Shown in pieces: positions 8,103 through 62,208 of a stretch of DNA of 64,000 nt. Source of the stretch: an uncultured bacterium (GTDB lineage: Bacteria; Patescibacteriota; Minisyncoccia; Phycocordibacterales; GWA1-40-21); NCBI GenBank assembly GCA_903831305.1, contig CAIKXE010000004.1, forward strand, positions 83,524 to 147,523. Direction: 5' to 3'. The notes under the pieces are model-generated. The model did not search any database, was not told where the DNA came from, and saw nothing but the letters and a program-made list of their open reading frames with translations. Each line of letters starts with the position of its first letter. The stretch's first letter is position 1. Made by a program: the position numbers and the translations under genes.

Positions 8103-9788
8103 TTAGTCACGACTTTCAATATCAATCACCCGCCCAAGCTCATCGAGTGAGCTTACTCCCTTCAAAATTCTGATCACGCCGTCTTGTTTCATATCTAAAA
8201 GATTTTGTGAGGCAGCCGCGGCCTTGATATCGCGATCCGAAGGGTTGTTAATAATAGCGTCCTCCACTTCCTTTTTCATCAAAATTACTTCTGTAATAGC
8301 AATACGCCCTTTATAGCCAGTTTTGTGACAGACTTCACAACCCACTGCTTGCCAGATCTTTTCAGTTTGAATATTAGCTAAATAAGTCTTGTCAGTAATA
8401 GTGGAGAGGGTGTGGTCAATAAATTCTTTTTCCTTGGCTGTTGGGGTGACCTGCGCTTTACAGTTGTTGCAGAGTTTTCTGATAAGTCTCTGGGCCATGG
8501 CCACGTTGATAGCGGAAGAAATAATTTTTGGGTTCACTCCGAGGTCAATCAGACGGGGGAAAGCACCCGCGGCGGTGTTGGTGTGCAAAGTAGAGAAGAC
8601 CAGGTGACCAGTCAAGGCGGAGTTGATAGCGATAGTAGCGGTTTCACCATCACGGATTTCTCCCACCATTATTACATCTGGATCCTGGCGCAAGGCGGAA
8701 CGCAAACCTGAAAGAAAAGTATAATCTTTTTCTTCTTCTACTTGGGTTTGGACAATACCTGGTAGGTGATATTCGATCGGATCTTCAATGGTAATTATCT
8801 TTACATCAGGAGAGCTGATCTTTTTCATAAAAGCATAGAGGGTCGTGGTTTTACCAGAGCCGGTGGGACCCGTGATGAGGAGCATGCCGTTTGGTCTCTT
8901 GATTTGTTCCAGTAAGGATTTTAAAGTGCGGTCTTCAATCCCAAGCTCTTCGATCGGCACAGCAATTGATTTTGGGTTTAAAAGTCTCATCACAATACTT
9001 TCATTATAGGCACCTGGTAAAACAGAGGAGCGGATTTCAATATCGTTATCTTGTATTTTGACACTAAAACGCCCATCCTGGGAGGTATTTTTTATGTTTA
9101 ATTTCATCCCGGACAATAATTTTATGCGGGACAAAAGTAATTCGTATGTATCAGTATCAAATTCAAAGACACTGATGAGCACGCCATCCAGTCTGAAGCG
9201 GATCCGGACATAAGCTTCTTCTGGCTCCACGTGAATATCAGAAGCGGAGAGGGCCAGGGCACCAGCGATCATTACTTCCATCATCTTGGAAATCTTATAA
9301 GCCTTTTTAAGGGACAAAATTTCCTTGATAATAGCTGTAACATCATCAACCTTTTTGATTTTATTCATATATTGAAGCACTTGGTCGGTAGAAATATCAA
9401 AAGTTCCGGCTGTGCTGTTTACTGCGTAAGATAAATCCTTATAGCGGTCCCAAGCCTTTGCTAGGCTAGCGGTGGTGGCCATGCTGGTCTGTATTTTATA
9501 ACCTTCATCAGCTAATTTTTTTAAAATAATGATTGCCTTATCATTCTTGGGTGAAAATACAGCGACTTGGATTTTTTTACCCACTTTTTCATAAACCGCT
9601 ATCTTTGCCTCACGAGCAAGCTCCTCCGGAATCAAACGAAGGGCGTCAGTATTTATCGGCACCGGCTTAAGATCAATAAAATTTAAACCATACCTAGTGG
9701 CTAGAATACGAATAACATCGTCTTCCTCTTTTTTATAGAGCTCTTCTAGACGCTTGGCTTGTTTATCTTCGTTAGCAAAGTCTGACAT
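8103..9788 (-). CDS. pilB: type IV pilus assembly ATPase PilB / GspE family
   Basis: Walker A GPTGSGKTT, Asp/His boxes, C-terminal Cys4 tetrad (CNNC...CEVC). Confidence 0.88.
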   Translation of the reverse strand: MSDFANEDKQAKRLEELYKKEEDDVIRILATRYGLNFIDLKPVPINTDALRLIPEELAREAKIAVYEKVGKKIQVAVFSPKNDKAIIILKKLADEGYKIQTSMATTASLAKAWDRYKDLSYAVNSTAGTFDISTDQVLQYMNKIKKVDDVTAIIKEILSLKKAYKISKMMEVMIAGALALSASDIHVEPEEAYVRIRFRLDGVLISVFEFDTDTYELLLSRIKLLSGMKLNIKNTSQDGRFSVKIQDNDIEIRSSVLPGAYNESIVMRLLNPKSIAVPIEELGIEDRTLKSLLEQIKRPNGMLLITGPTGSGKTTTLYAFMKKISSPDVKIITIEDPIEYHLPGIVQTQVEEEKDYTFLSGLRSALRQDPDVIMVGEIRDGETATIAINSALTGHLVFSTLHTNTAAGAFPRLIDLGVNPKIISSAINVAMAQRLIRKLCNNCKAQVTPTAKEKEFIDHTLSTITDKTYLANIQTEKIWQAVGCEVCHKTGYKGRIAITEVILMKKEVEDAIINNPSDRDIKAAAASQNLLDMKQDGVIRILKGVSSLDELGRVIDIESRD

Positions 9789-25996: not shown

Positions 25997-27076
25997 TTGA
26001 GACATAAAATTATGTCGCAACAAGTTCCTTATTCTAAATTATTTACTCCACCCCGTTTCCTAGAGATGGCTTCTGTCTCGGTGGAAATAAAGCCCCGAGG
26101 TATTACTTTTCTATCCACTAAAAATACGGAGAGAGGTCTATTACCAGATGTTTATGGAGTGATACCCTTACCAGAGAATGCTGTCGCTTTTGGGGAGATA
26201 ATAAAAAAGGAGCCCGTTATCAAGGCTTTGGTGGAAATCAAAAAGAGAACCAAAGTTGACTTTGTCCGCTATTCTATCCCTGAGGAAAAAAGTTATATTT
26301 TTATGGTTAATCTACCGCTTCTAAAGCCTAAGGAAATGCGTGATATTTTGGATTTTAAAATAGAGGAAAATGTCTCTCTTTCAGCCAAGGAAGCAGTGTT
26401 TGATTATGATATCGTTCCTGGATCCACCTATAAATCTAATTTAGACGTAGTAGTTTCCGTGGTCCCACTAGATATAGTGGAAGAAATGCAGTCCCTATGC
26501 CTTCAGGCCGGGTTAACTCCTATTTCCTTTAGCTCAGAGTCTAGTAACGTCGCTCGATCCGTCATAAAGAGCTCTAATGAACAAGTGATTATTGTCGTAT
26601 ATATTCGTGAGGCTAACATCATATTATCGCTCGTTGTTCATGGTGTGGTGTGTCAGACCTCGTCTGTAAATTTTGGCAGCTCTACTTTTACGGATTTGCT
26701 GGCCAAGTATTTTAAAGTGTCTTTAGCTGAGGCAGAGGAGATAAAAAAGGAGAAGCTGTATACTGACAATCCTGACAACATGGAAGTCTTTTCTTATTTG
26801 ATCAACACTATTTCTGCTATTAAAGATGAACTTTTCAAGTTTATTTCTTATTGCAACGAGCGTGAAGACGTGACCGGTCAAGTTGATCGGGTTATCTTGT
26901 GTGGGCAGGATGCTTTGATGATGGGTTTTGATAAATATCTATCCCTAAATTTGGATATACGTGTAGACGTGGCAAATGTCTGGGTAAATAACTTTGATTT
27001 GGATAAGTATGTGCCAGACATTAATCATGTGGCTTCGCAGAATTTATTAACCGTAAACGGTCTTAGTTTATTATAA
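25997..27076 (+). CDS. pilM: type IV pilus assembly protein PilM-like (actin-like ATPase fold)
   Basis: size, position ahead of PilN/O-like bitopic proteins. Confidence 0.6.
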   Translation: MRHKIMSQQVPYSKLFTPPRFLEMASVSVEIKPRGITFLSTKNTERGLLPDVYGVIPLPENAVAFGEIIKKEPVIKALVEIKKRTKVDFVRYSIPEEKSYIFMVNLPLLKPKEMRDILDFKIEENVSLSAKEAVFDYDIVPGSTYKSNLDVVVSVVPLDIVEEMQSLCLQAGLTPISFSSESSNVARSVIKSSNEQVIIVVYIREANIILSLVVHGVVCQTSSVNFGSSTFTDLLAKYFKVSLAEAEEIKKEKLYTDNPDNMEVFSYLINTISAIKDELFKFISYCNEREDVTGQVDRVILCGQDALMMGFDKYLSLNLDIRVDVANVWVNNFDLDKYVPDINHVASQNLLTVNGLSLL

Positions 27077-27077
27077 A

Positions 27078-27623
27078 ATGGCAAATCTTATTACCGAAAA
27101 ACAAAAGAAGATAATCAAGGTGGATTATTTGGTCCGTCTCCTGGCTCTTTCTTTGTTTGTGGCCAGTGTTTTGGGATCGTTTATTTTGGTTTACATTGTT
27201 CCGTATTATGTTTTTTTGAGTAAAAAGGAGGATCAGGTAGCCAAACAGTTTGAAGCTATGATCACGAGTGATAAAAAAGGGGGAGCGGGAGCCGGGGCGT
27301 CAGAGATTGTGCGGGAGACCCTGGATCAGATGAAGGCGCTAGAGCTTTATAAACCAGGTCAGCTGGACCCCTCAGATTACTTCACCAAAATTATTGAAAG
27401 CAAAAATACCAATATTGGTTTGAAAAAGCTTACCTTCAGCCCTAGTGGTAAAAGTGAAATTAAATTTTTAGTCAGTGGTATTTCCTTAGACCGAGAAAGC
27501 TTGGTGGATTTTATTGAGGCTTTGAAAATTAAAGGCGGTTTTGCCAGTGTAGAATCACCGGTTTCTGATTTTGCCAAGGATAAGAATATTTCTTTTACTT
27601 TAAATATTATTGCTAAAATATGA
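27078..27623 (+). CDS. pilN: PilN-like bitopic membrane protein
   Basis: single N-terminal TM after basic stretch, follows pilM with 1-nt gap. Confidence 0.5.
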   Translation: MANLITEKQKKIIKVDYLVRLLALSLFVASVLGSFILVYIVPYYVFLSKKEDQVAKQFEAMITSDKKGGAGAGASEIVRETLDQMKALELYKPGQLDPSDYFTKIIESKNTNIGLKKLTFSPSGKSEIKFLVSGISLDRESLVDFIEALKIKGGFASVESPVSDFAKDKNISFTLNIIAKI

Positions 27624-28189
27624 AATTAACTTTTTCCAAAAAAATATTAGTCCTGGCCCTCACCGTTTTTACTGGTATTTTGGTTTTGGATATTGTCCTG
27701 GGAAATTTACTTATTAACAGGATCTCTAGTATTAATGGCCGAGTGGACCAGTTAAACACTTCTTCACAAAAACGAGAAAAGGATCTAGTCTTGACGGACT
27801 TCATCGCTAATTCAGCCGCTGAACGTGATCAGCTGGCTAGCTACTTTGTGGGGGCTGGTAATGCGCAGACCGTAGATTTTACCAAATATTTAGAGACGCT
27901 GGCTAAGGAGGCAGGAGTAACGGAGAAAAAGACTTTGAACTATCAATCAGTGACTGGTCTGGAATCATCGGTTAATGTGTCAGCTATTGAGTATCATTTT
28001 AGTGTTTCTGGCCGGTGGACAAATATTTTTTCTTTCTTACAGTTGATTGAAAATTTACCTAAGGTACTGGTTTTAAATAATGTGTCGTTGTCAGTAGCTT
28101 CAGAGGCAGTTTCTCTTAATGAGATAAGGGCCGGGGTGAGAGTTTGGTCATTGGACCTAGATTTTTCTGTTGTTAATTTGAAAAATTAA
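27620..28189 (+). CDS. pilO: PilO-like bitopic membrane protein
   Basis: single TM, coiled-coil; overlaps pilN stop. Confidence 0.45.
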   Translation: MKLTFSKKILVLALTVFTGILVLDIVLGNLLINRISSINGRVDQLNTSSQKREKDLVLTDFIANSAAERDQLASYFVGAGNAQTVDFTKYLETLAKEAGVTEKKTLNYQSVTGLESSVNVSAIEYHFSVSGRWTNIFSFLQLIENLPKVLVLNNVSLSVASEAVSLNEIRAGVRVWSLDLDFSVVNLKN

Positions 28190-34022: not shown

Positions 34023-34394
34023 ATGAAGAAGATCATTGGTATGCTGGTGGCTGTCGCGGTCGTGGCGTTGTTTGCCACGGGGTGCGCGTCGCTCACTCGG
34101 GATCCGAACCGTGGGCGGGGCGTGGAGTATTCGGAGAAGATCCTCCGGCCGACGGGCGACGTCCCGAAGATCGGGACCGTGATCCACGTGATCGCGATTC
34201 TGAATCGGGAGGTGGAGTCTCAGGTCATCTGGACCGAGATGCCCACTGACTACGCCATGTTCCCGAAAGTTCGGGTCATGACGGTCAAGGGGTTTCGCGC
34301 CTGGTCGGAGGGTGTGGGTGACGAGAGAGACTCGTTGTGCATGGTCCAGTACGATAGTGAGACCAGCATACGCCTCATCCTCATGAAGGACTGA
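34023..34394 (+). CDS. lipoprotein (123 aa) in GC-rich island
   Basis: signal peptide plus lipobox LFATGC; GC3-rich codons. Confidence 0.5.
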   Translation: MKKIIGMLVAVAVVALFATGCASLTRDPNRGRGVEYSEKILRPTGDVPKIGTVIHVIAILNREVESQVIWTEMPTDYAMFPKVRVMTVKGFRAWSEGVGDERDSLCMVQYDSETSIRLILMKD

Positions 34395-34564
34395 CCACCC
34401 GAGTTTGTGGGTTAACTCTGACAACTCATATGGTCCTGAGGCGCCATTGTAAAAAGCCTCACTGTCTCACGATGTGTGTCGTGACTGATAAGTCCAAAAG
34501 GACGAAACAGAAAAGTTCTTTGAGAGGTAAGTAAGCGGGGTAAATCCCCAGAAAGAGAGAGACA

Positions 34565-35404: not shown

Positions 35405-35470
35405 CTCTTAACCTAAAGCGCGGATATAATCCGCCAAGTGACCTGACATGTTACAGACAACTGTCAACGG

Positions 35471-35505
35471 GCCCGGACTGCAACACGCAGTTCCGGGCCT
35501 TTAAA
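35471..35505 (+). terminator. hairpin ggcccggactgc...gcagttccgggcc plus T run
   Basis: read directly. Confidence 0.55.
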
Positions 35506-35582: not shown

Positions 35583-36482
35583 TTGTTTTGGAAAAATTTA
35601 AGGTATAATTTCTCCGTGGAATATTTAATACACCTTGCCATACTCTTTGCTATCTACGTGCCACTGGCGGTGTCACTAAATTTGGTGGTGGGGTATACTG
35701 GACTGCTCTCTGTCACTCACGCGGCCTTTTATGGTGTGGGGGCTTATGCCACTACTCTGCTTGTGGTAAATTTTGGTTGGGGCTTTATCCCGGCTTTGCT
35801 TGTGGCCATGATCCTCTCCGGCCTCCTGGCCACTCTCTTTGGCTTGATCCTCAGCCGTTTCCGAGATGATTATTATGCCTTGGTCTCTTTTGGTTTCAAC
35901 ATTATCGTTTACAGTATTTTATTAAACTGGGAGAGCTTGACCCGTGGCCCCCTAGGGATCCCTGGTATTCCTCGGCCAGAAATATTTGGTCTGACTTTTG
36001 ATTCAAATTTATCATTCTTGATTTTAGCCTTGGCTCTGGCTCTCACGGTCTACCTGGTTTCAGCGGGCATTGTAAAATCATCCCTTGGCCGAGTGCTCAA
36101 AGGGATAAGAGAAGATGAAAAGGTGCTCGCTATCTTTGGTTACAATACCGAGGTTTTCAAGCTGGTCATCTTTGGCCTGACCGCGATGATGGCGGGGCTC
36201 GCGGGTGGTCTCTTTGCTACTTATATTACTTTTATTGACCCTTCCACTTTTGGCCTGAATGAAAGTATTTTTATCCTGGCTATGATTATCCTGGGTGGTA
36301 TGGCTAATCTCCGGGGGTCCGTCATCGGCGCTCTGTTCCTAATCCTCCTGCCGGAAATTCTGCGTTTTGTGGGCTTCCCCTCAGACATCGCGGCCCAGAT
36401 GCGCCAAGTGGTGTATGGGGCTCTCTTGGTCTTGCTTATGTTATATCGTCCCCAAGGATTGCTAGGGGAGTATAAACTGTGA
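35583..36482 (+). CDS. livM: branched-chain amino acid ABC transporter permease (LivM-like)
   Basis: multi-TM permease; paralogous to LivH-like gene. Confidence 0.78.
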   Translation: MFWKNLRYNFSVEYLIHLAILFAIYVPLAVSLNLVVGYTGLLSVTHAAFYGVGAYATTLLVVNFGWGFIPALLVAMILSGLLATLFGLILSRFRDDYYALVSFGFNIIVYSILLNWESLTRGPLGIPGIPRPEIFGLTFDSNLSFLILALALALTVYLVSAGIVKSSLGRVLKGIREDEKVLAIFGYNTEVFKLVIFGLTAMMAGLAGGLFATYITFIDPSTFGLNESIFILAMIILGGMANLRGSVIGALFLILLPEILRFVGFPSDIAAQMRQVVYGALLVLLMLYRPQGLLGEYKL

Positions 36483-42696: not shown

Positions 42697-43377
42697 GTGA
42701 TGGGAAAGCGTGGCCCAAAACCAAAATATTTAGTTTCAACTGTTTGGCGATTTGGCCTCGCTTACGCGGTTGGTTTATTGGCCTCTGATGGATGCCTTTC
42801 TTGTGATGGCAGGCATATTGATTTAACTTCGATAGACATAGAGCAATTAGAAAATTTTAACAAGGCACTAGGATTAAATTTTGAAATCGGGTTCAAGGAT
42901 AGAAATTCTAAAAGTAATAATACTGCATACAGGGTTCAAATTTCAAGTGTTTTGTTCTATGAGTTTCTAGAAGGAATCGGTTTTACAAAAAAGAAGTCCC
43001 TGACAATAAAGGAGATAAATTTACCAGATAAGTATTTTGCAGATTTTCTTAGAGGACTATTTGATGGGGATGGGTGTAGCTATTCCTATTGGGACAAGAG
43101 ATGGAGGTCTAGTTTTATGTTTTATGTTGGATTTTGTTCTGGAAGCACTGCCTTTGTTAGTTGGTTACAAGAAAAAATTAAAAAACAAGTAAAGGTAAAA
43201 GGACATATTACTAAATCAAAAAGAAAAAACTTTTATTATCAGTTAAAGTATTCAAAATATGAAGCTGTAAAACTGGTCGGTTTTTTATATAAAAATGGTA
43301 ATGTTATTAAATTAAATAGAAAGTACTTGAAAATAATGAAAACTTTAGGTACTATGAGGAAGTTAGGTGAGATTTAG
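42697..43377 (+). CDS. free-standing double-motif LAGLIDADG homing endonuclease
   Basis: two LAGLIDADG motifs (LLASDGCLS and GLFDGDGCS) ~100 aa apart; ends 1 nt before tRNA-Leu. Confidence 0.75.
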   Translation: MMGKRGPKPKYLVSTVWRFGLAYAVGLLASDGCLSCDGRHIDLTSIDIEQLENFNKALGLNFEIGFKDRNSKSNNTAYRVQISSVLFYEFLEGIGFTKKKSLTIKEINLPDKYFADFLRGLFDGDGCSYSYWDKRWRSSFMFYVGFCSGSTAFVSWLQEKIKKQVKVKGHITKSKRKNFYYQLKYSKYEAVKLVGFLYKNGNVIKLNRKYLKIMKTLGTMRKLGEI

Positions 43378-43462
43378 GCCTGGGTGGCGAAACTGGCTAG
43401 ACGCACTACCTTGAGGTGGTAGCGGGAGCAATCCTATGGAGGTTCAAATCCTCTCCCAGGCA
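43378..43462 (+). tRNA. tRNA-Leu (anticodon GAG)
   Basis: acceptor GCCTGGG/CCCAGGC, anticodon stem CTACC/GGTAG loop TTGAGGT, long variable arm, T arm GAGGTTCAAATCCTC. Confidence 0.8.
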
Positions 43463-43466
43463 CAAT

Positions 43467-43997
43467 ATGTTATATACACGTAAAGGTGATAAAGGCAAAA
43501 CGCAAATCTTTGGCTGTAATCAAAAGCTGTCTAAAAGCTCGGTGATTGCCGAGGCTTTGGGGACACTGGATGAGGCTAATTCTTTTCTTGGTGTAATAAA
43601 ATCCAAGACAATAGATAAAAAGTTAGGCACTGTTATTAATAATGTTCAGGAAAATCTTTTTATTATTCAAGCTGAGGTGGCCGGGGCGGATAAAAGGATA
43701 ACTAGGACCAAGGTATTAGAGCTTGAAAAGATTATTAATCAGATTGAAAAGGAATTACCCCCTATCAAATCTTTTTTTATTTCTGGGGCATCAGAAACTT
43801 CAGCCCTATTTGATTTTGCGCGTACTCTTGCGCGGCGAGCGGAGAGGCGAGCGGTCCAGGTAGCCGAGGAAGGGGTGGCAAAGGTGGGTCCAGAGACCCT
43901 GGCTTACTTAAACCGCCTGTCCAGCTTATTATACGCTTTGGCTAGACAATCAGCCCATAAGAGTGGGTTTAGGGAAGCTATTCCTAAGTATAAATAA
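43467..43997 (+). CDS. PduO-type ATP:cob(I)alamin adenosyltransferase-like protein
   Basis: N-terminal MLYTRKGDKGKT and overall helical-bundle pattern typical of PduO/MMAB family. Confidence 0.55.
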   Translation: MLYTRKGDKGKTQIFGCNQKLSKSSVIAEALGTLDEANSFLGVIKSKTIDKKLGTVINNVQENLFIIQAEVAGADKRITRTKVLELEKIINQIEKELPPIKSFFISGASETSALFDFARTLARRAERRAVQVAEEGVAKVGPETLAYLNRLSSLLYALARQSAHKSGFREAIPKYK

Positions 43998-44060
43998 TAT
44001 ATTTTTTAACCACAGATTTGAGTATTTACATTAACTGATGATTTTTGTATACTTATAAAT

Positions 44061-44534
44061 ATGGATGATTTTAATTGTGATTTTTGTGGTAATAAATTTA
44101 AAAAGAAGAAATCTCAAGTAAAGTTGAGTTTTAAACACTATTGTTCCAGGGTCTGTTCAGAAGGGGGAAGAAAAAATGGTAAACTCGTCCTGTGCTATGT
44201 TTGTAAAATACCTATTTATAAAAAGTTAAAGGATTTAGGTTCTTCAAAGAGTGGTAAGTATTTTTGTGGTCACGTTTGTTGTAATATCTGGACCGGAAAG
44301 AAACAAAGAGCAGAAAACCACCCTAATTGGGTTAATGGAAAGGCCTCGTATAAAAATATTTTAAAAAGGTCAGATTTTTTAAAAGAATGTATTCTGTGCG
44401 GAAAGAATGATATCAGGGTACTTTGTGTCCATCATCTAGATAAAAATAGGAAGAATAATACAATCCAAAACCTGGTTTGGTTATGTCAAAACTGTCATTT
44501 CCTAGTTCATCGATATAATAAAGAAATAAAATGA
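44061..44534 (+). CDS. HNH endonuclease with N-terminal Cys-rich zinc-finger repeats (paralog 1)
   Basis: HHLDKNRKNN...NLVWLCQNCH HNH motif; four CxxC pairs. Confidence 0.7.
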   Translation: MDDFNCDFCGNKFKKKKSQVKLSFKHYCSRVCSEGGRKNGKLVLCYVCKIPIYKKLKDLGSSKSGKYFCGHVCCNIWTGKKQRAENHPNWVNGKASYKNILKRSDFLKECILCGKNDIRVLCVHHLDKNRKNNTIQNLVWLCQNCHFLVHRYNKEIK

Positions 44535-45037
44535 AAGCTTTTTGCAAAATTTGTAGAACTAAATTTTCCCCTAGACCATCCCATGTAAAAAGAGGCTGGG
44601 GGTTATTTTGCTCAAGAGGTTGTAAGAATGTGGGTACTCGCGTTAGACAGAAAGTGTATTGTTTTATCTGTAGTAAGGAATTGTTCAAGACAGCTACGCA
44701 GATCAATCATTCAAAAAGTGGAAAATATTTTTGTGATAAATCGTGCCAGACAATTTGGAGGAATAGCCAATTTACTGGTTTAAGGCATTCAAATTTTAAG
44801 TCAGGTAGTCATACTTATCAAAGTATTTTAAAACGTAATAAGGTTTTTCAAACTTGTGGGTTTTGTGGCGAAAAGGATATAAGGGTTTTAGTTACACACC
44901 ACGTCGACGAAAACCATAGTAACAATGATCTCAATAATTTGGCTTGGCTCTGTCATAATTGCCATACACTGGTACATTATGCTAATGTAGAGAAGCGAAG
45001 GTTTCTTGTTAAACACAATAAGAGCCAGAGCAAATAA
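44531..45037 (+). CDS. HNH endonuclease with N-terminal Cys-rich repeats (paralog 2, overlaps paralog 1 by 4 nt)
   Basis: HHVDENHSNNDLNNLAWLCHNCH; KSGKYFC shared with paralog 1. Confidence 0.7.
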   Translation: MKAFCKICRTKFSPRPSHVKRGWGLFCSRGCKNVGTRVRQKVYCFICSKELFKTATQINHSKSGKYFCDKSCQTIWRNSQFTGLRHSNFKSGSHTYQSILKRNKVFQTCGFCGEKDIRVLVTHHVDENHSNNDLNNLAWLCHNCHTLVHYANVEKRRFLVKHNKSQSK

Positions 45038-49647: not shown

Positions 49648-50202
49648 ATGAAAACAGAAAATATTGAGATTTTGAAAAACGGCGGAGTGGGGGTGATGCC
49701 GACGGATACAGTGTACGGTATCGTCTGCAGTGCTTTTTCTAAGCCGGCGCTAGAAAGGCTTTTTAAAGTCAAAGGCCGGGATGAAAACAAACCACCGATT
49801 ATTCTCATAGCCGATATTTCTGATTTGGATAGGTTTGGAATCAGCATTTCTCCTACTCAGGTTGAGTTTATGGGAAAATATTGGCCAGGGAAGGTAACGA
49901 TTATCTTTACTGTACCAGAAAACTTTTCTTATTTAGACAAGGGTTTGGGTCTGGCTATCCGGCTACCGGCCGATGAGAGTTTGAGAGAAATCTTAAGGCA
50001 GACCGGACCACTGGCTACTACTAGTGCTAATTTTCAGGGTCAAACCACAGCTAAAAATATTAATGAGGCGAAGAAGTGTTTTGCTGATAATGTGGATTTT
50101 TATGAAGATGGTGGTGAGCTAGAATCCCTACCTTCTACCTTAGTAAAAATAAGTGGTGACAAAGTAGAAATCCTACGCCAGGGAGCGGTTGTTATTTCTT
50201 AA
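49648..50202 (+). CDS. tsaC: L-threonylcarbamoyladenylate synthase TsaC/YrdC
   Basis: VMPTDTVYGIVCSAF ... Sua5/YrdC fold. Confidence 0.8.
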   Translation: MKTENIEILKNGGVGVMPTDTVYGIVCSAFSKPALERLFKVKGRDENKPPIILIADISDLDRFGISISPTQVEFMGKYWPGKVTIIFTVPENFSYLDKGLGLAIRLPADESLREILRQTGPLATTSANFQGQTTAKNINEAKKCFADNVDFYEDGGELESLPSTLVKISGDKVEILRQGAVVIS

Positions 50203-51130
50203 ATATCTTGTTATATTGTTGATAAACAATCTTATGAAAAAAGGTTTTACCCACACCCTAAATTTTAAAAGAAAGTTAGTATGTGGGTTTACATTACTCG
50301 AAATCCTCCTCGTCGTCGGCATCATCGCTGTCCTGGCCGGCATTGTTATTTTAGCTATTAATCCTACGAAACAGTTCTCCAATATCCGTAATACTCAAAG
50401 AAAGATGAATCTAGCGGAAATCAACAAAGCCTTATACCAATACTATATAGATAATAGCGGTTATCCTTCCACTCTCACCACCACCTTAACCGAAATATGT
50501 AACACCGGTACTGGTACTACTACCCACAGTGTAGTCTGTACTGGACTTATCGACCTCTCGGCTCTCGTCCCCACTTATTTAGTAGCTATCCCCGCTGATC
50601 CCCAAGCTACCTCTACCAATGCTTTATATAAGGTGATGAAGGGTACCAATAATAAACCCTATGTCAGTGCAGCTTCAGCTGAGCTTGGGGTAACGGTTGA
50701 GTTGGGGACGGCACCACCGGCTGTGGTTCCTTGTGGTGACCCTACTAGTGAGGCTTGTTGGTCGACGATTGCTAGTAGTAAAGCTTGGGGACCATCTGGT
50801 GTAACTACTGGTGCCCAAAGTAATACTGACGGATCGGCAAATACAGTAATCTTGGCCGGTTTAGCTGGTAGTTATCCGGCAGCGGAATATTGTGACGCTC
50901 TGTCAGAAGGAGGTTATACTGATTGGTATTTACCAGCTAAGGATCAGTTATTTTCTGGTCGTGTAGCTCTCGGTTTGTCTGGTTTCCCGAGTGGTGTTTA
51001 TTATTGGTCATCTACTGAGAATCAAAACTATCCAGGTGACGGCGCTTGGTTCCTGGATACCGACTACGGTGGCAGCATGGGCGACTACTACGATAAGATC
51101 AATCAGTTCTCCATTCGTTGTCTTCGCTAG
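50189..51130 (+). CDS. type IV pilin-like protein with C-terminal DUF1566 (Lcl-like) domain
   Basis: prepilin motif G-FTLLEILLVVGIIAVLAGI; C-terminal YTDWYLPAKDQL...YYWSSTE...RCLR. Confidence 0.65.
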   Translation: MLFLKYLVILLINNLMKKGFTHTLNFKRKLVCGFTLLEILLVVGIIAVLAGIVILAINPTKQFSNIRNTQRKMNLAEINKALYQYYIDNSGYPSTLTTTLTEICNTGTGTTTHSVVCTGLIDLSALVPTYLVAIPADPQATSTNALYKVMKGTNNKPYVSAASAELGVTVELGTAPPAVVPCGDPTSEACWSTIASSKAWGPSGVTTGAQSNTDGSANTVILAGLAGSYPAAEYCDALSEGGYTDWYLPAKDQLFSGRVALGLSGFPSGVYYWSSTENQNYPGDGAWFLDTDYGGSMGDYYDKINQFSIRCLR

Positions 51131-51211
51131 TTTTTTGGTATTAACGTAGGTACATAAAATAGAGTTATTTATTTAATGGCTAATTTTATTTGACCAAGGT
51201 ATAATATATAA

Positions 51212-51862
51212 ATGTTAAATTTATTTAAAAAAAAGCTATTGGAAAATACGACTACTAAAACAAATATTCCTAAGGCATTTATCATTATTGGGCGCTCAGG
51301 CTGTGGTAAGGGGACGCAAGCGGACTTGCTGATGGAGCATTTATGTAAAACTGGTGATAAAACTTGCCGTAGTTTACATATTGAGAGCGGGGCGCTGCTC
51401 AGAGCCTTTTCTCTTGGTGGTAATTTTACTCAGAAAAAGATCAAAACTGTTCTAAATAGTGGCACCTTGGTACCAGAATCCATCATTGTGTCCTTGTGGA
51501 CAAATTATATTATTGCTAATTTTACTGGTACGGAAAATATGGTTTTTGATGGTACACCTAGGAAGCTTCATGAGGCCCAGCTTTTGGATAATGCCCTGCA
51601 GTTTTATGGAGTAGAAAAACCTGTTGTCCTTCATTTGGATGTTAGCCGAGATTGGTCAGAAAAAAGGTTGCAAGGAAGGGCGAGGAAGGATGATACCGTG
51701 GAGGCGATCGCTCGAAGGCTGGCTTGGTTTGAGACTGAAGTGACAAAGACAATAGATTATTATAAAAACAATTCCTATTATAATTTTATAAATATTAATG
51801 GCGAACAGCCGATTACTGATGTTCAAAATGAAATACTTGCCAAATTAGGCTTAAATAGGTAG
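51212..51862 (+). CDS. adk: adenylate kinase-like nucleoside monophosphate kinase
   Basis: P-loop IIGRSGCGKGTQA; NMP-binding and LID-like regions. Confidence 0.6.
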   Translation: MLNLFKKKLLENTTTKTNIPKAFIIIGRSGCGKGTQADLLMEHLCKTGDKTCRSLHIESGALLRAFSLGGNFTQKKIKTVLNSGTLVPESIIVSLWTNYIIANFTGTENMVFDGTPRKLHEAQLLDNALQFYGVEKPVVLHLDVSRDWSEKRLQGRARKDDTVEAIARRLAWFETEVTKTIDYYKNNSYYNFININGEQPITDVQNEILAKLGLNR

Positions 51863-51865
51863 TAT

Positions 51866-52645
51866 TTGTTAATGGCCGTAACTGTTAAAAATAAAGAGGA
51901 AATAGAAGCTTTGCGAGAAGGGGGTAAGAGATTAGCCTTTATTTTGGCTGAAGTGGCTCGGGCGGTAAAGCCTGGTGTTTCTACTTTGGATCTAGATAAT
52001 TTAGCTCGGAAGCTGGTAGAAGAGGGGGGTGATAAAAGTGCTTTTCTAAATTATAAACCGGCCGGTATGAAGAGGCCTTATCCGGCGACTATTTGTGTAT
52101 CAGTGAACGATGCGATTGTCCACGGTATTCCTAACGAGAATCCTCTGATTATAAAAGAAGGTGACATAGTTTCCTTGGATATGGGACTAAATCATAAGGG
52201 ACTTTTTACGGACGCGGCGGTGACAGTGGGGGTAGGAACAGTGGATCAGGCAGGTCAAAATTTGATTGACGCTACTCGCCTGGCTCTATATGAGGGAATA
52301 AATGTCATAAAACCAGGTAAACATATCAGAGATATTAGCTATGCGATTGAAAAATATGTCCGACCAAAGCATTTGGGGATTGTGGAGGAACTCTGCGGGC
52401 ACGGCGTGGGTTATAAAGTCCACGAGGATCCATTTATTCCAAATTTTTGTTTGGAAGAGAAAGGAGAAAAATTAAAAGAGGGCATGGTCCTGGCCCTGGA
52501 GCCAATGCTAAATGAGGGGAGTCGGCATATCAAGCTTGATGCGGATGGCTATACTTATAGGACACAGGATGGTAAGCGTAGCGCACATTTTGAACACACG
52601 GTCGTCGTCACCCATGATGGGGTGGAAATATTGACTCAGGAATAA
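51866..52645 (+). CDS. map: type I methionine aminopeptidase
   Basis: metal ligands in ...VHGIP..., D..D, H, E, E pattern. Confidence 0.88.
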   Translation: MLMAVTVKNKEEIEALREGGKRLAFILAEVARAVKPGVSTLDLDNLARKLVEEGGDKSAFLNYKPAGMKRPYPATICVSVNDAIVHGIPNENPLIIKEGDIVSLDMGLNHKGLFTDAAVTVGVGTVDQAGQNLIDATRLALYEGINVIKPGKHIRDISYAIEKYVRPKHLGIVEELCGHGVGYKVHEDPFIPNFCLEEKGEKLKEGMVLALEPMLNEGSRHIKLDADGYTYRTQDGKRSAHFEHTVVVTHDGVEILTQE

Positions 52646-52740
52646 TTATTGTCACCAAGTAAGCCATGGCTTACTTTACAATATAGGAGTTTTCAATATG
52701 TATCTGTGCTATTATAGTAAGCATAATTTTATTTAGTATT

Positions 52741-54681
52741 ATGAAAAGAAACCACGGTTTTACATTACTTGAAATCCTCCTCGTCGTCGGTCTCATCGCT
52801 ATCCTCGCTGGTATCGTGATTCTTGCCCTAAATCCCACCAAGATGTTCTCCCAAGTCCGTAATGCTCAGCGTAAGGCTAATCTGACAGAAATCAATAAAG
52901 CCGTCTACCAATATTATATTGATAACTCCCGTTATCCCGCCACCTTAACCTCCATCGCCACTGAGATCTGTAATACCGGGGCTACTTCTACTGGTCATAG
53001 TATAAGCTGTACTGGTTTGATTGACCTCTCAGCTCTCGTCCCTACTTATATGGTCGCCATCCCCACTGACCCCAGTGGGGCCATAAATACCGGTGGAGCC
53101 GGTTATAAAATAGCTAGTGACCCTATTGGTAAACCGTACCTTCAAGCCTCTCGCGCGGAACTCTCGGTCAGTATTTACATTGGTAATAGCACTGGAGTTC
53201 TAGGTACAAACTGGGATATGCCTGGAAGCTGGACTACACCTACTACAACCGGTAATCTCCGTTACTGGGTGGCCTCCTCGGCTGGCTCTTGGAATGATAC
53301 CGCTAACTGGTCTACTACCTCTGGTGGAGCGGGTGGCTCCTCGGTCCCCGGTTCTACCGAGGATGCCTACTTTGATGGTAGTGGAAATGGAGCTTGTACC
53401 ATAAATGCCACCGTCAATGTTAAAGGTCTAATCCTAGAAGGCTATTCCGGCACTATCACTCAAGGCTCCTATGCTGTGACGGTGGGGACTGATGGTTACT
53501 CTCAAGCCTCGGGGACCTTTACTGGTTCAGGTGCTGGCTCAGCGGTTACTGTAAATGGTATCTATAAATTGGCGGGAGGGGTGTTTACAGGGACAAGTGG
53601 GACGTTAACCGTGGCTGGTAATTTTACTAAAACGAATGGGACGTTTGCGCATAATAGCGGGACGACAAAAATGACTGGCTACGGGAGTACCTTTACTAGT
53701 GGTGGTACTACCTTTGGTAGTCTTACTTTTTATTCAACTGCCTATACCGCAAATCCATATGTCCTAGCCGACGATTTTGTTGTAGCAGGAGATTTAACAA
53801 TATCTTCAGCCGCATATGGATGGGTTACAGCCATATCTCCTCGCACAATTACCCTTCAAAGTAATTTTTATCAAACAACATCTTTTAATAGTGCACTTGG
53901 TGGTTTTGATACGAGTAATATAACTCTTATTATGACAGGAAGCGGAAAGACTTTTACTCTCTCATCCGGACAATTCAAAGCTAACTTAAGTTTACAAGGT
54001 GCAACTACATTAGCTTACTCAGCATATTTACCTAATTATTCTGGGACTCTCACTATTGATGCAAGTGTGGGTCTTGGCGCGGCATTAAATTGTGGTTCAT
54101 TAGTCATAAATTCCGGTAAGACCCTCACCACAAACAACTATGATGTTACCATTAGCGGCTCCTTAATTAATAGTGGCACGTTTACTTTGGGAACAAGTAA
54201 TGTAACATTAAGAAATGCATACAATTCAATAGTAACTCATACAACTGGTGGTATTGCCTTTAATAATCTGACACTTGGTGGAGCGAGTATAACTGGATCT
54301 CAAATATTAGCGGATAATTTTACAGTAGCTGGGACTTTGACGATCGGCGACGTCTCCTGGCTAAATACGGTTACTGCCACTTCTACTCGAACGATTACTC
54401 TTCAGGGTAATTTTGTTCAGACATTGCTTTCTAATAGTAACCTCGGCGGTTTTGATACAAGTAACATTACTCTTAATATGACAGGAAGCGGAAAGACTAT
54501 TAATTTTACTCAGGGTAAATTTAAGGCTAATTTAAATATTGCTAATTCTGCCTCAATTTCTTTGGTTAATAATTTAGTTGTTACTAGTGCCACGACTACT
54601 ATAAATGCCGGTGGTACATTAAACAAAATGGGCTATACCTTGACCGGGACTTTAGTAAATAATGGTACTCTAATACCTTAA
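52741..54681 (+). CDS. large type IV pilin-like protein (646 aa) with Thr/Gly/Ser-rich internally repeated C-terminal region
   Basis: prepilin motif G-FTLLEILLVVGLIAILAGI; N-terminal 140 aa paralogous to 50189 ORF; tandem ~180-aa repeats. Confidence 0.65.
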   Translation: MKRNHGFTLLEILLVVGLIAILAGIVILALNPTKMFSQVRNAQRKANLTEINKAVYQYYIDNSRYPATLTSIATEICNTGATSTGHSISCTGLIDLSALVPTYMVAIPTDPSGAINTGGAGYKIASDPIGKPYLQASRAELSVSIYIGNSTGVLGTNWDMPGSWTTPTTTGNLRYWVASSAGSWNDTANWSTTSGGAGGSSVPGSTEDAYFDGSGNGACTINATVNVKGLILEGYSGTITQGSYAVTVGTDGYSQASGTFTGSGAGSAVTVNGIYKLAGGVFTGTSGTLTVAGNFTKTNGTFAHNSGTTKMTGYGSTFTSGGTTFGSLTFYSTAYTANPYVLADDFVVAGDLTISSAAYGWVTAISPRTITLQSNFYQTTSFNSALGGFDTSNITLIMTGSGKTFTLSSGQFKANLSLQGATTLAYSAYLPNYSGTLTIDASVGLGAALNCGSLVINSGKTLTTNNYDVTISGSLINSGTFTLGTSNVTLRNAYNSIVTHTTGGIAFNNLTLGGASITGSQILADNFTVAGTLTIGDVSWLNTVTATSTRTITLQGNFVQTLLSNSNLGGFDTSNITLNMTGSGKTINFTQGKFKANLNIANSASISLVNNLVVTSATTTINAGGTLNKMGYTLTGTLVNNGTLIP

Positions 54682-54771: not shown

Positions 54772-57591
54772 ATGGAAAATGGACTACAAAAAATAGAGCA
54801 AAAGTTTTCTTCTCCACAGGAGGAGCTAAATTATTTACGTGAGCAAGTGGCTCGGCAGGAAAAAGTCCTGATAGAGAAAGGGGAGAGTGTGCCTAGAGAA
54901 GACATCATCACCGATAAAATAATTGATTATAAAAATACTAGGCCCGAGGAGGCTTTACAGCCAGACTATCAGTTGAAAACGGCGGAGGTGGAGGCGATTG
55001 TTTTGGATCTGTCGCCGGAGGAGCACGATGCTAAGATGGAAGAGATGGTTACTATTTTACAGCACAAGGGCTTGATGAATGCTTTGTCTGTGGTGGAGAG
55101 TTTAAAGGACGCACATCTAGATGATGATTTCCACCGTTTTTTAATCCAATATATCAAGGCTGGTCTGCCACTTGGGGCGGTGAAGGAGAGTAGCCCATTT
55201 TTTAAGGCTCTTAAAATGACTTTATATGAAGTAGCTTTGCCACAAGCTGAGGAGGAAGAAAAAGGCAAGCAGAAAAATTTGAAAGAGCTTATTTCTAAAA
55301 TGGAACAGTTTTACGCTGGTATGCTTTCAGTCTCCGCAGAAAAGGCGGGCCCAGATTATCTGACGATAGAGCTTGCTAACGCTAACAAGAGTGCGGAGTT
55401 TATTTTTTATGTTTCTGTTTCGGATGCTAAAAAGGAGTTATTTGAAAAACAAATCATGTCTATTTTCCCTGAGGCTAGGATCCTGGAGAAAAAAGATGAT
55501 TATAATATTTTCAATGAGCAAGGGGTGTCAGTGGGCTCTTATGCCAAGCAGGAGAAAAACCATATCTTCCCATTAAAAACCTATGATAAGTTTGATTATG
55601 ACCCACTCAATGTTATTTTAAACAGTTTTTCAAAAATTGACCGTGATGGTGAAGGAGCCAGCATCCAGATAGTTTTTAAGCCAGTGGGGGAAAAATATGT
55701 GAGTTTTTATAAAACCGCTTTGAAGGACTTTTCCAAGGGGATGAAGCTTAAAGAAGCGATAGATATGGACCGCTTCTCCTTTTTTGGCGAGACCAAGAAA
55801 ATATTTAAAGAGATTACTGATAGCTTTGTGGAAGGAAAAAAAGAAAAAGAAAAGGAAAAAGGTTTGGCTGATCAAAAGACCTTGGATATGGATAAAAACG
55901 TGCTGGAAAACTTAAATGGCAAGATCAGCACACCCACGGTGGAGACAAATATCCGAATTATTGCATCATCCCGCACAGAGGCTGAAGCTCTGTCCATCCT
56001 ATCTGATCTGGAGTCCGCTTTTAATCAGTTTGAAAATACGGGTAGTAATAAACTGTCCTTTAAACGTCCGGAAGGTAAGGACCTCAGACAGTTTTTCCGT
56101 GAGTTTTCCTTCCGGGTTTTTATGGCTAGCCAAAAGATGCCCTTAAATATCAGGGAAATAACCAGTATGATGCATTTACCGGAGAATGAAATCTTGGGGA
56201 CCTCACAACTCAAGCAGAGTAAGGCCGGTAGTGCGCAAGCTCCGCTTGACCTACAGAAGAACGGTATTTCCCTTGGTAAAAATATTCACCGTAATGTGGA
56301 GACGGACATTTATATGTCACCGGAAGACCGTCTCCGTCACTTATATATCATTGGACAGACGGGTACTGGTAAAACTACTTTATTAAAGCAGATGATTAGA
56401 CAGGATATTTTAAATGGTGATGGTGTTTGTATGATTGATCCGCATGGTTCAGATATTCAGGATGTCTTATCATATGTGCCGAAAGAGCGCCTGGAGGACT
56501 TGGTTTACTTTGATCCATCCTACACCGCTCGGCCGATGGGCCTAAATATGCTGGAATATGATATTCGTTTCCCGGAGCAAAAGACTTTTGTGGTAAATGA
56601 AATGCTTTCCATCTTTAATAAACTCTTTGACATGAAGGTAGCTGGTGGCCCGATGTTTGAGCAGTATTTTAGAAATTCCGTGATGCTGGTATTGGAAGAT
56701 CCAGAGAGTGGTAATACTTTGCTTGACGTTTCTCGGGTTTTGTCCAACAAGCAGTTTAGGGATTTGAAGATTTCCAAATGTAAGAATCCGCTCGTTATAC
56801 AATTTTGGAAGGAGATAGCGGAGAAAGCCGGCGGAGAAGCCTCTTTGGCTAATATTGTGCCTTATATTGTCAGTAAGTTTGATGTCTTTTTGCAGAATGA
56901 TATTATGCGACCAATCATTGCTCAAGAAAAATCCTCTTTTAATTTCCGTGAGATAATGGATCAGAAGAAAATCCTTCTGGTGAACTTGTCCAAGGGACGC
57001 CTAGGGGATATCAATGCCAATTTGATTGGTCTGATCATTGTAGGTAAAATCCTGATGGCGGCTTTATCACGGGTGGATTCTCTTGGTAAGGACTTAGCAC
57101 CATTTTACTTATATATTGATGAATTCCAAAATATTACCACGGATTCTATCTCTACTATTTTCTCGGAGGCCAGAAAGTACAAATTATCACTTACTGTTGC
57201 CCATCAATTTATTGCTCAGCTGGAAGAGGATATTCGGGATTCCGTTTTTGGAAACGTGGGATCCATTGCTTCTTTCCGGGTTAGTTCGGAGGATGCTGAA
57301 TATTTGGAAAAGCAGTTTGCGCCGACTTTCTCCGCCAAGGATTTGATGAGTATAGATAATTTGAATTGTTATATGAAGATGCTTGCTTCTGGCCGGCCGG
57401 TCAAGCCATTTAATTTGTTTATCCCCTTTCCACCACGTGGGGATAATGCCTTGATTGACAAAGTAAAGGAACTTTCCTATCTTAAATATGGTCGGGATCG
57501 TGAATTAGTGGAGTCAGAAATAATGAAGAAGTATGAGAAAAAGCCACTTGAGGAGGCGCCGCCAGTCCCGGTTAGCCCATTTAAGATTTAA
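54772..57591 (+). CDS. large P-loop NTPase (939 aa): novel N-terminal ~480 aa + C-terminal TraD/VirD4/HerA-FtsK-like ATPase domain
   Basis: Walker A IIGQTGTGKTTLL, IDPHG, Walker B YLYIDEFQN, HQ sensor; no TM segments seen. Confidence 0.55.
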   Translation: MENGLQKIEQKFSSPQEELNYLREQVARQEKVLIEKGESVPREDIITDKIIDYKNTRPEEALQPDYQLKTAEVEAIVLDLSPEEHDAKMEEMVTILQHKGLMNALSVVESLKDAHLDDDFHRFLIQYIKAGLPLGAVKESSPFFKALKMTLYEVALPQAEEEEKGKQKNLKELISKMEQFYAGMLSVSAEKAGPDYLTIELANANKSAEFIFYVSVSDAKKELFEKQIMSIFPEARILEKKDDYNIFNEQGVSVGSYAKQEKNHIFPLKTYDKFDYDPLNVILNSFSKIDRDGEGASIQIVFKPVGEKYVSFYKTALKDFSKGMKLKEAIDMDRFSFFGETKKIFKEITDSFVEGKKEKEKEKGLADQKTLDMDKNVLENLNGKISTPTVETNIRIIASSRTEAEALSILSDLESAFNQFENTGSNKLSFKRPEGKDLRQFFREFSFRVFMASQKMPLNIREITSMMHLPENEILGTSQLKQSKAGSAQAPLDLQKNGISLGKNIHRNVETDIYMSPEDRLRHLYIIGQTGTGKTTLLKQMIRQDILNGDGVCMIDPHGSDIQDVLSYVPKERLEDLVYFDPSYTARPMGLNMLEYDIRFPEQKTFVVNEMLSIFNKLFDMKVAGGPMFEQYFRNSVMLVLEDPESGNTLLDVSRVLSNKQFRDLKISKCKNPLVIQFWKEIAEKAGGEASLANIVPYIVSKFDVFLQNDIMRPIIAQEKSSFNFREIMDQKKILLVNLSKGRLGDINANLIGLIIVGKILMAALSRVDSLGKDLAPFYLYIDEFQNITTDSISTIFSEARKYKLSLTVAHQFIAQLEEDIRDSVFGNVGSIASFRVSSEDAEYLEKQFAPTFSAKDLMSIDNLNCYMKMLASGRPVKPFNLFIPFPPRGDNALIDKVKELSYLKYGRDRELVESEIMKKYEKKPLEEAPPVPVSPFKI

Positions 57592-61624: not shown

Positions 61625-61794
61625 GACCCTTACAGGGTCAGTACCCGTGTTTGGATTTTTTATTCTCCTTCGAAAGACTCAGGATCTAAAAAATCTCAAA
61701 CAGGCTTCGCTTCCGCCCCGTAAGCAAAATCATTTGCTTACTCATCTCCACATAACAAAAATCGCCCATCAGAATGAGCGGGTTTTTGTACATG

Positions 61795-62208
61795 TGGAGA
61801 TGGGCGGAATCGAACCGCCGTGCATAAGAGTATCCTAATTGCTTCTACAAAGTCTAGTTAATTTATCTTCACTTGCGTGAATTTAAGTCTGTGATTTCAA
61901 AAAGAACAAAATGATCACAAACCGATCCTCTAATTTCTTTCCGTACCGAGAAAATTACGGAATATAATCTAATTTTATGTCACCCAGACCAGTTTATTAG
62001 ATATGGACTGATTGGATGCCGCTTAGGTTTGTTTTATGAAACGTAAGCGAAAGCAAAGTTGTTGGCCGCAAAATATGGGGACACAACAGACTTTACTCTT
62101 GAAACAATGCTATTAGCAGTTGTTTGTTTATTAACATTTTAGGTGTGTATAATAATGCACCACTTTGCGCAATCAAGGACAGATCAGATGTCTAGGCCGA
62201 TCATCCCC
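61795..62208 (-). ncRNA. ssrA: tmRNA (ssrA), ~414 nt
   Basis: 5' GGGGATG pairs with 3' CATCTCC-A; 3' T arm GGCGG-TTCGATT-CCGCC; smpB 0.4 kb away. Confidence 0.6.

Follow-up and report, generated by a model that had tools for sequence, protein, structure and literature searches.

Two paralogous proteins from a patescibacterial genome as candidate modular type IV pilins with different C-terminal cargo

Most Candidate Phyla Radiation (CPR) bacteria are uncultured and apparently attached to other cells, and how they recognize their hosts is largely unknown; for the small number of Saccharibacteria in culture, the attachment device with the best support is the type IV pilus. Modular pilins, the class described by Raynaud et al. 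2021, are widespread and occur in the CPR as well, with PilB of Streptococcus sanguinis representing a modular pilin adhesin (PMC8179133). The InterPro census of this class contains 7 proteins with the pilin plus Lcl_C combination IPR012902-IPR011460 (9 including a two-copy form) and also lists CPR examples and PF13385 cargo (PMC8179133). In the present study, we analyzed a 64-kb window of DNA (64,000 nucleotides, positions 83,524 to 147,523 of contig CAIKXE010000004.1, GenBank assembly GCA_903831305.1) from an uncultured bacterium of the GTDB lineage Patescibacteriota; Minisyncoccia; Phycocordibacterales; GWA1-40-21. It contains two genes encoding a bimodular protein of 298 aa with a pilin module and an Lcl_C/DUF1566 domain (gene A, 50234..51130, + strand; open reading frame (ORF), TIGR02532 match and structure model) and a protein of 646 aa with a pilin module and a beta-solenoid (gene B, 52741..54681, + strand; ORF, N_methyl and TIGR02532 matches). 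Our analysis favors, with reasonable probability, the interpretation that A and B are modular type IV pilins displaying adhesin cargo on CPR pili. Modular pilins as such are an established kind of protein and the architecture of A has already been catalogued, while the cargo added by B represents a family without a database signature, which a census built on signatures would overlook.

Both proteins follow the modular-pilin organization, with pilin module and cargo at residues 19-158 and 170-298 of A, separated by a linker, and a module (7-148), linker (149-171) and solenoid in B. Like A and B, S. sanguinis PilB (von Willebrand factor A domain) and PilC (lectin domain) consist of a class III signal, a small pilin module, a short linker and a non-pilus module, and a role in adhesion through display on type IV pili is proposed for all four proteins. 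In contrast to the S. sanguinis proteins, the pilin module of A and B belongs to a different, CPR-specific family, and the cargo domains differ. Within the CPR, PilX1 (jelly-roll, lectin-like) and PilX2 (beta-propeller) of Nanosynbacter lyticus TM7x are likewise pilins with large C-terminal domains, and PilX2 is needed for efficient host binding, for which a glycan-binding mechanism has been proposed (PMC11623550). PilX1 and PilX2 are encoded inside pilus loci and were reported to be without a canonical PilD-type signal, whereas A and B carry the canonical motif G/FTLLE (the slash marking the predicted cut) and lie outside pilus loci; the cargo folds of the two pairs are different as well.

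The proposal, made earlier in a reading of the sequence only, that A and B are paralogous ORFs with a common N-terminal module was borne out by BLASTP, which aligned A18-158 with B6-148 at 66% identity over 143 residues (E 2e-60) and detected no further significant similarity between the two proteins outside this range. The module spans residues 19-158 of A (50288..50707, + strand; alpha1 helix, beta-sheet head and conserved Cys pair, defined by BLASTP, structure model and Foldseek) and residues 7-148 of B (52759..53184, + strand; defined by BLASTP against A), and in both cases constitutes a complete pilin domain of ~140 aa, after which the proteins diverge. The paralogous modules are also recognizable in the DNA as a direct repeat of 300 nt with 74% identity. 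Comparison of module pairs yielded a dN/dS of 0.21-0.24 at a dS of 1.0-1.3, which indicates that they are old paralogues under purifying selection rather than recent copies; the synonymous divergence of ~1.2 led us to reject the idea that A and B had lately undergone gene conversion. The motifs quoted in the sequence-only reading (GFTLLEILLVVG..., NLxEINKAxYQYYIDNS, EICNTG, LVPTYxVAIPxDP, YTDWYLPAKDQL, YYWSSTEN and RCLR) were present in the translated genes. Its length of 313 aa for A corresponds to an existing ORF, the maximal one starting at TTG 50189, but public gene calls place the start at ATG 50234 and the identical 298-aa protein (P0193) is found on 12 public contigs. For B, public data include a partial protein that is 100% identical (P0001).

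A prepilin leader, likewise suggested earlier for both proteins, was confirmed. The A leader of 18 aa (MKKGFTHTLNFKRKLVCG; 50234..50287, + strand) and the B leader of 6 aa (MKRNHG; 52741..52758, + strand) end in Gly before the predicted prepilin-peptidase cut in the motif G/FTLLE and are followed by FTLLEILLVVGIIAVLAGIVILAINP and FTLLEILLVVGLIAILAGIVILALNP, respectively. Accordingly, both signals read as a basic leader ending in Gly-1, then Phe+1, Glu+5 and a hydrophobic stretch, and G-1, F+1 and E+5 were invariant in 25 aligned modules. Both proteins exceeded the cut-off of 16.3 bits of the NCBIfam model for prepilin N-terminal cleavage/methylation (TIGR02532), with 19.0 bits for A and 22.9 bits for B, while in Pfam N_methyl (PF07963; cut-off 21.2) B scored 27.4 bits and A 20.2 bits, just under the threshold. 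Besides A and B, no further prepilin motifs were found in the window. The A leader is unusually long, and the cleavage motif is echoed in its first half, KKGFTHTL. Sibling pilins bearing other cargo, including P0014, P0010 and P0016, share such an A-type extended leader, which was also noted for P0007, P0012 and P0040, with some siblings carrying the variant ..GFIPLET...SLTG; it might provide another processing site, act as a regulatory propeptide or be left over from a duplication.

Structure prediction with AlphaFold2 (AF2), which had been proposed as a check for both proteins, returned a pilin followed by an alpha/beta domain for A and an all-beta solenoid for the cargo of B. The model of A was built on an alignment of 69 full-length relatives and reached a mean predicted local distance difference test (pLDDT) score of 91.4. 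It consists of a long helix (residues 21-74) and a small beta head (strands 86-157), followed by a lower-confidence linker (~159-169, pLDDT 68) and a compact alpha/beta domain (170-298). Its N-terminal half matched PilA1 of Clostridioides difficile, EpsG, PulG, PilE and geopilin in Foldseek and PDB profile searches. In the 25-module alignment, the carriers, i.e. modules fused to cargo, had Glu5, which is invariant, the Pro of the helix and a pair of Cys residues in common with short pilins consisting of the module only. The part shared by A and B is therefore a whole pilin domain and not a bare secretion signal. This bears on the caveat raised with the sequence-only reading, that the module might turn out to be a generic secretion signal of unrelated proteins: it does occur on hundreds of otherwise unrelated proteins, but what they share is the entire pilin domain, which strengthens the modular-pilin interpretation instead of refuting it.

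Several named pilin families were considered for the module. For GspG of the type II secretion system (T2SS; TIGR01710) A scored 34.8 and B 34.1 against a cut-off of 88.85, with only the helix at residues ~5-80 covered, and with 14-15 bits against the 21 of PF08334 membership in GspG was ruled out. Similarly, the ComGC/ComGD/ComGE models gave 16-22 bits at NCBIfam cut-offs of 49-75, and membership was ruled out. On these profile scores the module is a pilin, yet one outside the named GspG and ComG families.

The cargo of A (residues ~170-298; 50741..51127, + strand) was assigned to the Lcl_C/DUF1566 type with a C-type-lectin-like fold by Pfam, PDB profile search and Foldseek. The DUF1566/Lcl-like domain that had been recognized from sequence motifs is thus supported by two further results: in alignment A2, comprising A and 69 relatives, 64 of the 70 proteins matched Lcl_C (E ≤ 1e-3), and the family profile of A matched the C-terminal domain of Legionella Lcl (8Q4E) over residues 221-294 with an E value of 3.7e-8. 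Homology of the A cargo to Lcl_C is consequently well supported at the sequence level despite a sub-gathering score of the single sequence. In the AF2 model the cargo domain has a pLDDT of 92-98. The best Foldseek match of A was the Bacteroides fimbrial protein 4EPS (E 1.4e-3, 174 columns), followed by weak matches (E 0.35-3) to rhodocetin and other snaclecs, CD72, BDCA2, the carbohydrate-recognition domain of the mannose receptor and intimin, and these structural classes coincide with those reported for the C-terminal domain of Lcl (Lcl-CTD) (PMC11162425). The full pilin plus Lcl_C architecture was retained over >85% of the length in >60 of the 120 matches listed for A.

Lcl of Legionella pneumophila is a glycosaminoglycan-binding adhesin whose CTD forms a trimeric C-type-lectin-like head; it is a T2SS-secreted trimer with a collagen-like stalk and no disulfides that binds glycosaminoglycans via surface lysines (PMC11162425). 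The Lcl_C domain of A differs from this protein in being joined to a pilin and in possessing conserved cysteines (positions 167, 220 and 296, conserved in ≥ 90% of alignment A2). A related domain is also apparent in Bacteroides ovatus BACOVA_04982 (4EPS), where the family profile match was weak (E 0.015, C-terminal region); 4EPS is part of another pilus system and no type IV pilin, and its similarity to A is weak.

In B, the module is followed by a Thr/Gly-rich linker (residues 149-171; 53185..53253, + strand; pLDDT <50 at residues 152-165) and a cargo of ~475 aa (residues ~172-646; 53254..54678, + strand) that begins with the cap motif LRYWVASSAGSWNDTANWSTTSGGAGGSSVPGSTEDAYFD and was assigned as a beta-solenoid from the AF2 model and homologues. 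The two tandem repeats of ~180 aa described earlier for this region were recovered at residues 264-441 (53530..54063, + strand) and 444-623 (54070..54609, + strand) by self-comparison and as a DNA repeat, with 44-51% identity, E values of 5e-20 to 7e-30, a period of 546 nt or 182 aa and a dN/dS of 0.60 between the copies. For this comparison the protein was split at several points; self-BLAST of the unsplit protein gave the diagonal alone. Several independent public assemblies (L082, L083 and two further contigs) end inside gene B, with partial products of 530, 585 and 598 aa, probably because the 546-nt repeat disrupts short-read assembly; strain variation in repeat number would be an alternative cause.

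Residues 149-646 of B had 77 relatives, and no Pfam model matched the cargo region in B or in these relatives, nor were sequence relatives of the cargo found in the PDB. The AF2 model of the cargo shows short beta strands throughout, with block means of pLDDT of 82-98, mostly >90, at residues 170-380, 64-85 by residue 420 and moderate values further on. Its Foldseek neighbors, all of them weak (E 0.3-9), were RsaA, HxuA, Ag43, EspC, EspP and an ice-binding protein. The earlier likening of B to beta-helical adhesins thus agrees with an all-beta solenoid model whose neighbors are beta-helix surface proteins, all at weak scores. B resembles the passengers of Ag43, EspP and EspC, the TpsA protein HxuA and the S-layer protein RsaA in general all-beta solenoid architecture. 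Unlike the autotransporter and two-partner secretion (TPS) adhesins, it has no barrel and no TPS domain and would be exported by a prepilin signal, and no autotransporter, TPS or PATR (PF12951) Pfam model matched B or its cargo relatives. Beta-rich extensions of pilins are represented by Thermus ComZ (beta-solenoid) and CofB of enterotoxigenic Escherichia coli (beta-repeat plus beta-sandwich), both thought to be tip-located (PMC8179133). PDB sequence search and Foldseek revealed no sequence or significant fold match of ComZ or CofB to B. The extra domain of ComZ is a beta-solenoid like the cargo of B; it is inserted within the pilin fold, while that of B is appended at the C-terminus.

Closer examination of the B-cargo relatives revealed that the cap motif, in its conserved form ..RYWVa...GNWNDTANWSTTSGGAGGASVPG..D.A.FD, directly follows the signal peptide in Sec-secreted non-pilin relatives and thus represents their mature N-terminus, while in B and its sibling P0002 it comes after the pilin module. 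Homologues of the solenoid occur in Sec-secreted and type IX secretion system (T9SS)-sorted proteins of other phyla, some Bacteroidota relatives ending in a T9SS sorting domain, and we regard the B-cargo homologues as surface or secreted proteins because of these Sec signals or sorting domains. As the cargo of B starts at the mature N-terminus motif of its Sec-secreted homologues, B seems, from this sequence comparison, to be a complete mature surface protein grafted onto a pilin, which replaced its own signal peptide. In ~25 further relatives (including P0147, P0164, P0167, P0170, P0175, P0177 and P0180-P0192), the cap motif is located at residues 1-4 (MADRYWV...) without a signal peptide, which suggests non-Sec export or a phage origin for this subset. 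Weak Phage_spike and PBCV_P4 matches were observed in single relatives.

These last two observations would suit phage or non-Sec proteins and lend some support to an enzymatic cargo, according to which the solenoid of B would act as a lyase or hydrolase against the host envelope and the domain of A would be non-adhesive. Right-handed beta-helices also include many glycan-degrading enzymes and phage tailspikes. Furthermore, modular pilins with peptidase modules are on record (PMC8179133). However, neither B nor the 69 aligned relatives contained a pectate-lyase, glycosyl-hydrolase or other catalytic family, the closest folds of B are of the adhesin/S-layer type, and Lcl-CTD binds ligands and is non-catalytic, so that we consider an enzymatic function improbable.

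To place the module in a wider context, 25 aligned modules were scanned against one genome per GTDB species, which returned 393 relatives; the locus counts given here rest on the best 80 loci. These were largely patescibacterial (Paceibacteria, Doudna-, Uhr-, Jackson-, Davies-, Morani-, Falkow-, Magasanik-, Buchanan- and Taylorbacteria as well as others), together with about a dozen metagenome-assembled genome (MAG) records titled Gammaproteobacteria, Pseudomonadales or Bdellovibrionales, bin labels that we regard as unreliable. The 80 loci harbored 112 module ORFs, ~84 of which were module-only with a mature length of 136-165 aa, and a PilB homologue was located within 10 kb in 48 of the 80 loci, usually 4-6 kb upstream. 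The module of B was 42-56% identical to these short, mostly pilB-linked CPR pilins. In one Paceibacterota MAG, locus L026 has the order pilB (T2SSE), pilC (T2SSF), small ORF, LVIVD propeller, minor pilin and two short module pilins, whereas locus L046 of the same MAG encodes a 369-aa protein with the module and Fib_succ_major beside a histidine kinase and has no pilus genes nearby. The LVIVD-repeat protein of L026 (7592-9058, 488 aa) is a beta-propeller whose gene lies just upstream of those for the minor and short pilins in this pilB-pilC-pilin operon; it may act as a tip factor, either PilY1-like or linked to the pilins. CPR genomes thus encode, next to pilB-pilC, a short pilin that has the fold of this module, and judging from its size and position, this short pilin is probably the major pilin.

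The existence of ~84 module-only pilins in the GTDB loci also ruled out that the module never occurs free of cargo, as all 120 matches listed in a first search (each ≥ 360 aa) had appeared to show. This all-long result is explained by the carriers being the nearest relatives of B and forming their own group in HMMER searches and trees. An exhaustive HMMER search with B1-150 as the query recovered 18,583 proteins at E ≤ 1e-3, 1,922 at ≤ 1e-10 and 124 at ≤ 1e-30, and the best 150 representatives were almost all 250-970 aa long. In a neighbor-joining tree of 272 modules, the short pilins formed an almost pure clade with the cargo-bearing modules outside, and all of 50 bootstrap trees contained a split with 61-70 of the 74 short pilins and at most two carriers. 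Mean module identity was 0.63 within the short pilins, 0.57 within the carriers and 0.50 across the two groups, and diagnostic positions include mature residues 11-12, which are GI or GL in carriers and AA in short pilins. By these sequence criteria, the carriers are a paralogue group separate from the short pilB-linked pilins.

This separation speaks against A and B each being the major subunit of its own filament, with cargo along the whole fibre. The ~50% identity of the module to the short pilB-pilC-linked pilin and the lack of another pilin gene in the window would be in line with such filaments. In other CPR genomes, however, the short pilins reside in the pilB operon and the carriers elsewhere, as in the MAG that has both (L026, L046), the carriers form a clade apart, and a 475-aa cargo on each subunit would be hard to fit into normal pilus helical packing. 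Separate filaments built from A or B therefore appear highly improbable to us.

Hundreds of carrier modules were fused to cargo domains, among them the Pfam families Laminin_G_3 (LamG), Fib_succ_major, Gly_rich_2, GLUG, Lcl_C, Flg_new, fn3, F5/8 type C and others. The module of A was 70-73% identical to modules with LamG, Fib_succ_major or Gly_rich_2 cargo, and its best identities to modules of Lcl_C carriers were 68%, followed by 63% and 60%. Cargo groups were defined as Louvain communities at 50% coverage, in which Lcl_C and Flg_new proteins were still merged; these replaced a single-linkage clustering of the cargo regions, which had put nearly all of them into one cluster. With this grouping, the nearest module neighbor carried cargo of a different community in 110 of 205 cases, compared to an estimate of ~82% for random assortment, a result that points to both inheritance and exchange of cargo. 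Cargo type thus appears to track the module phylogeny only partly. A more tentative extension of these findings, which we consider possible but somewhat short of an even chance, is that the carriers are a dedicated pilin lineage serving as a plug-and-play scaffold, onto whose C-terminus entire mature surface proteins such as the solenoid of B are grafted and thereby lose their own signal peptides, with cargo swapped faster than the module diverges and the genes placed as singletons in housekeeping operons, the ribosomal protein operon included.

Regarding the pilus machinery, the window encodes a PilB-type assembly ATPase, the presumed motor of pilin polymerization (8103..9788, - strand; Pfam T2SSE 400.9 bits plus MshEN), and the actin-like pilus alignment protein PilM (25997..27076, + strand; Pfam PilM_2 68.4 bits). 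The genes of two small membrane proteins, each with a single pass (27078..28189, + strand), come directly after pilM, their start codons overlapping the preceding stop codons, and occupy what would be the PilN/PilO position; each protein has an N-terminal hydrophobic helix and no Pfam match.

Not only A and B but also their closest siblings lie among housekeeping genes. P0014, with LamG cargo and an A-type 18-aa leader (L087 5051-6133), lies inside a ribosomal protein operon directly after rplE, P0002 (L089 8001-10688) is a single gene between murB and secA, P0010 adjoins HU and RNase Y, and P0005 adjoins an ABC-F ATPase. Locus L010, whose PilB is 85% identical to that of the window, shares the ruvC-yebC-ruvB...pilB-tsaE block with it and encodes after tsaE (9986-11602) a modular pilin of 538 aa, which combines a Flg_new-like domain with a tandem pair of ~110-aa repeats. 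The window has polA directly after tsaE (9788-10742) and no modular pilin there, which indicates that carrier genes are gained or lost between close relatives.

This scattering of A/B-type genes among housekeeping genes, outside pilus operons, would also be expected if the pilin domain merely served for export and alpha1 tethered the cargo in the membrane without any filament being formed. Archaeal sugar-binding proteins with class III signals and short pseudopilus stubs offer models for such anchoring. The very bulky cargo and the lack of a major pilin, PilC or PilD nearby in the window agree with it as well. On the other hand, the carriers retain the full pilin head, Glu5, the helix Pro and the Cys pair at a dN/dS of ~0.22, none of which a tether would need, and modular pilins that have been studied by experiment occur in purified pili (PMC8179133). 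We therefore regard surface anchoring without a filament as unlikely, although less so than an enzymatic cargo.

Returning to display on type IV pili as the preferred interpretation, the signal, the pilin fold, the identity or fold class of the cargo, the homology of the module to the short CPR pilins and its separate clade, the purifying selection on it, the variation of cargo on a conserved carrier and the presence of PilB and PilM in the window are directly supported. Under this interpretation, a prepilin peptidase would recognize the class III signal peptide and cut after the leader Gly, and PilB/PilC/PilM would insert the carrier module, i.e. the alpha1 helix with Glu5 and the beta head, into a type IV pilus; the bulk of the cargo makes the tip or a few scattered sites on the shaft the probable positions. 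The flexible linker, which follows the pilin fold on its C-terminal side, would hold the cargo away from the cell, where the lectin-like cargo of A and the adhesin-type solenoid of B may attach to polymers on the surface of a host cell or a substrate. Several cargo carriers seem to be encoded in this genome, and with different cargo on each of them one pilus machine could present a set of binding specificities.

A number of results weigh against this interpretation. No PilC, PilT, prepilin peptidase (Peptidase_A24) or short pilin was recognized among the ORFs of the 64-kb window, so that a complete machine in this genome is an assumption, and A and B lie amid housekeeping genes, outside the pilus operon and ~40 kb from pilB. 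The pilin module of B was poorly modelled (pLDDT 40-60, with few module sequences in the alignment), its fold being read through the 66% identity to the well-modelled module of A. The match of A to Pfam Lcl_C (PF07603) over residues 213-298 reached 31.5 bits (E 2.3e-7) and remained below the gathering score of 34.9, and none of the Foldseek matches of the B cargo was significant (best E 0.31). Finally, a 475-aa solenoid on every subunit would not fit into the filament body, so that placement at the tip or at sparse positions would be required. Even so, surface anchoring, enzymatic cargo and separate filaments are each less likely than pilus display, given the full pilin head with Glu5, the lack of a catalytic family and the location of the short pilins in pilus operons.

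The immediate neighborhood of A and B appears to be unrelated to the pilins. As described in the sequence-only reading, the two genes are separated by adk (51212-51862) and map (51866-52645), and a Sua5/YrdC gene is located upstream. A functional unit of the order sua5-pilin-adk-map-pilin-ATPase was rejected, since adk and map were found in 0 and the ATPase in 2 of the 80 related loci. The large ATPase described as following B is present, with 939 aa, but it is VirD4/TraD-like and not a pilus ATPase, and the adjacency is not conserved. It is an orphan homologue of VirD4/TraD-like coupling proteins with a P-loop ATPase (54772-57591); no family matched its long N-terminal region, and VirB4 is not encoded nearby. 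Isolated VirD4/TraD-like genes of unknown function are common in CPR/Patescibacteria genomes (PMC12102498). We treated adk, map and the VirD4-like ATPase as incidental neighbors. Promoter-like hexamers were present just upstream of A and B, in a region where their count was no higher than the shuffled expectation.

Elsewhere in the window, a GC-rich island (33900-35500, GC 0.55-0.63 compared to ~0.40 elsewhere) looks like inserted foreign DNA. It is located between the substrate-binding (32732-33856) and permease (35583-36482) genes of a branched-chain-amino-acid-type ABC transporter and contains an ORF of 279 aa (34565-35404) with a sub-threshold response-regulator receiver match (25.8 vs 30.2 bits). 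A region near the tRNA genes for Val, Leu and His (42697-45037) includes a LAGLIDADG endonuclease-like ORF (42697-43377) and HNH/zinc-finger ORFs (44061-44534 and 44531-45037), which may be mobile-element remnants. A tmRNA gene (61792-62208, - strand; Rfam RF00023, 98 bits) and seven tRNA genes across the window were also identified.

Pilins with recognizable binding domains are concrete, genome-readable candidates for the host-recognition molecules of CPR bacteria, and the window adds two such candidates, one with a lectin-like Lcl_C head and one with a long beta-solenoid of a family without a database model. Relative to the modular-pilin concept, the carrier clade, the partial congruence of cargo and module, the graft site of B and the scattered genes are incremental. 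Taken together, they suggest a carrier module that is conserved over many CPR classes, evolves separately and serves as a scaffold for many, swapped cargo types. A practical rule for cargo that domain databases miss follows from this, which is to query with the carrier module rather than with the cargo, and A and B offer specific proteins for binding assays. If the interpretation of the carriers as a scaffold is true, the cargo set of a genome would be a readable determinant of the host or substrate range of an episymbiont.

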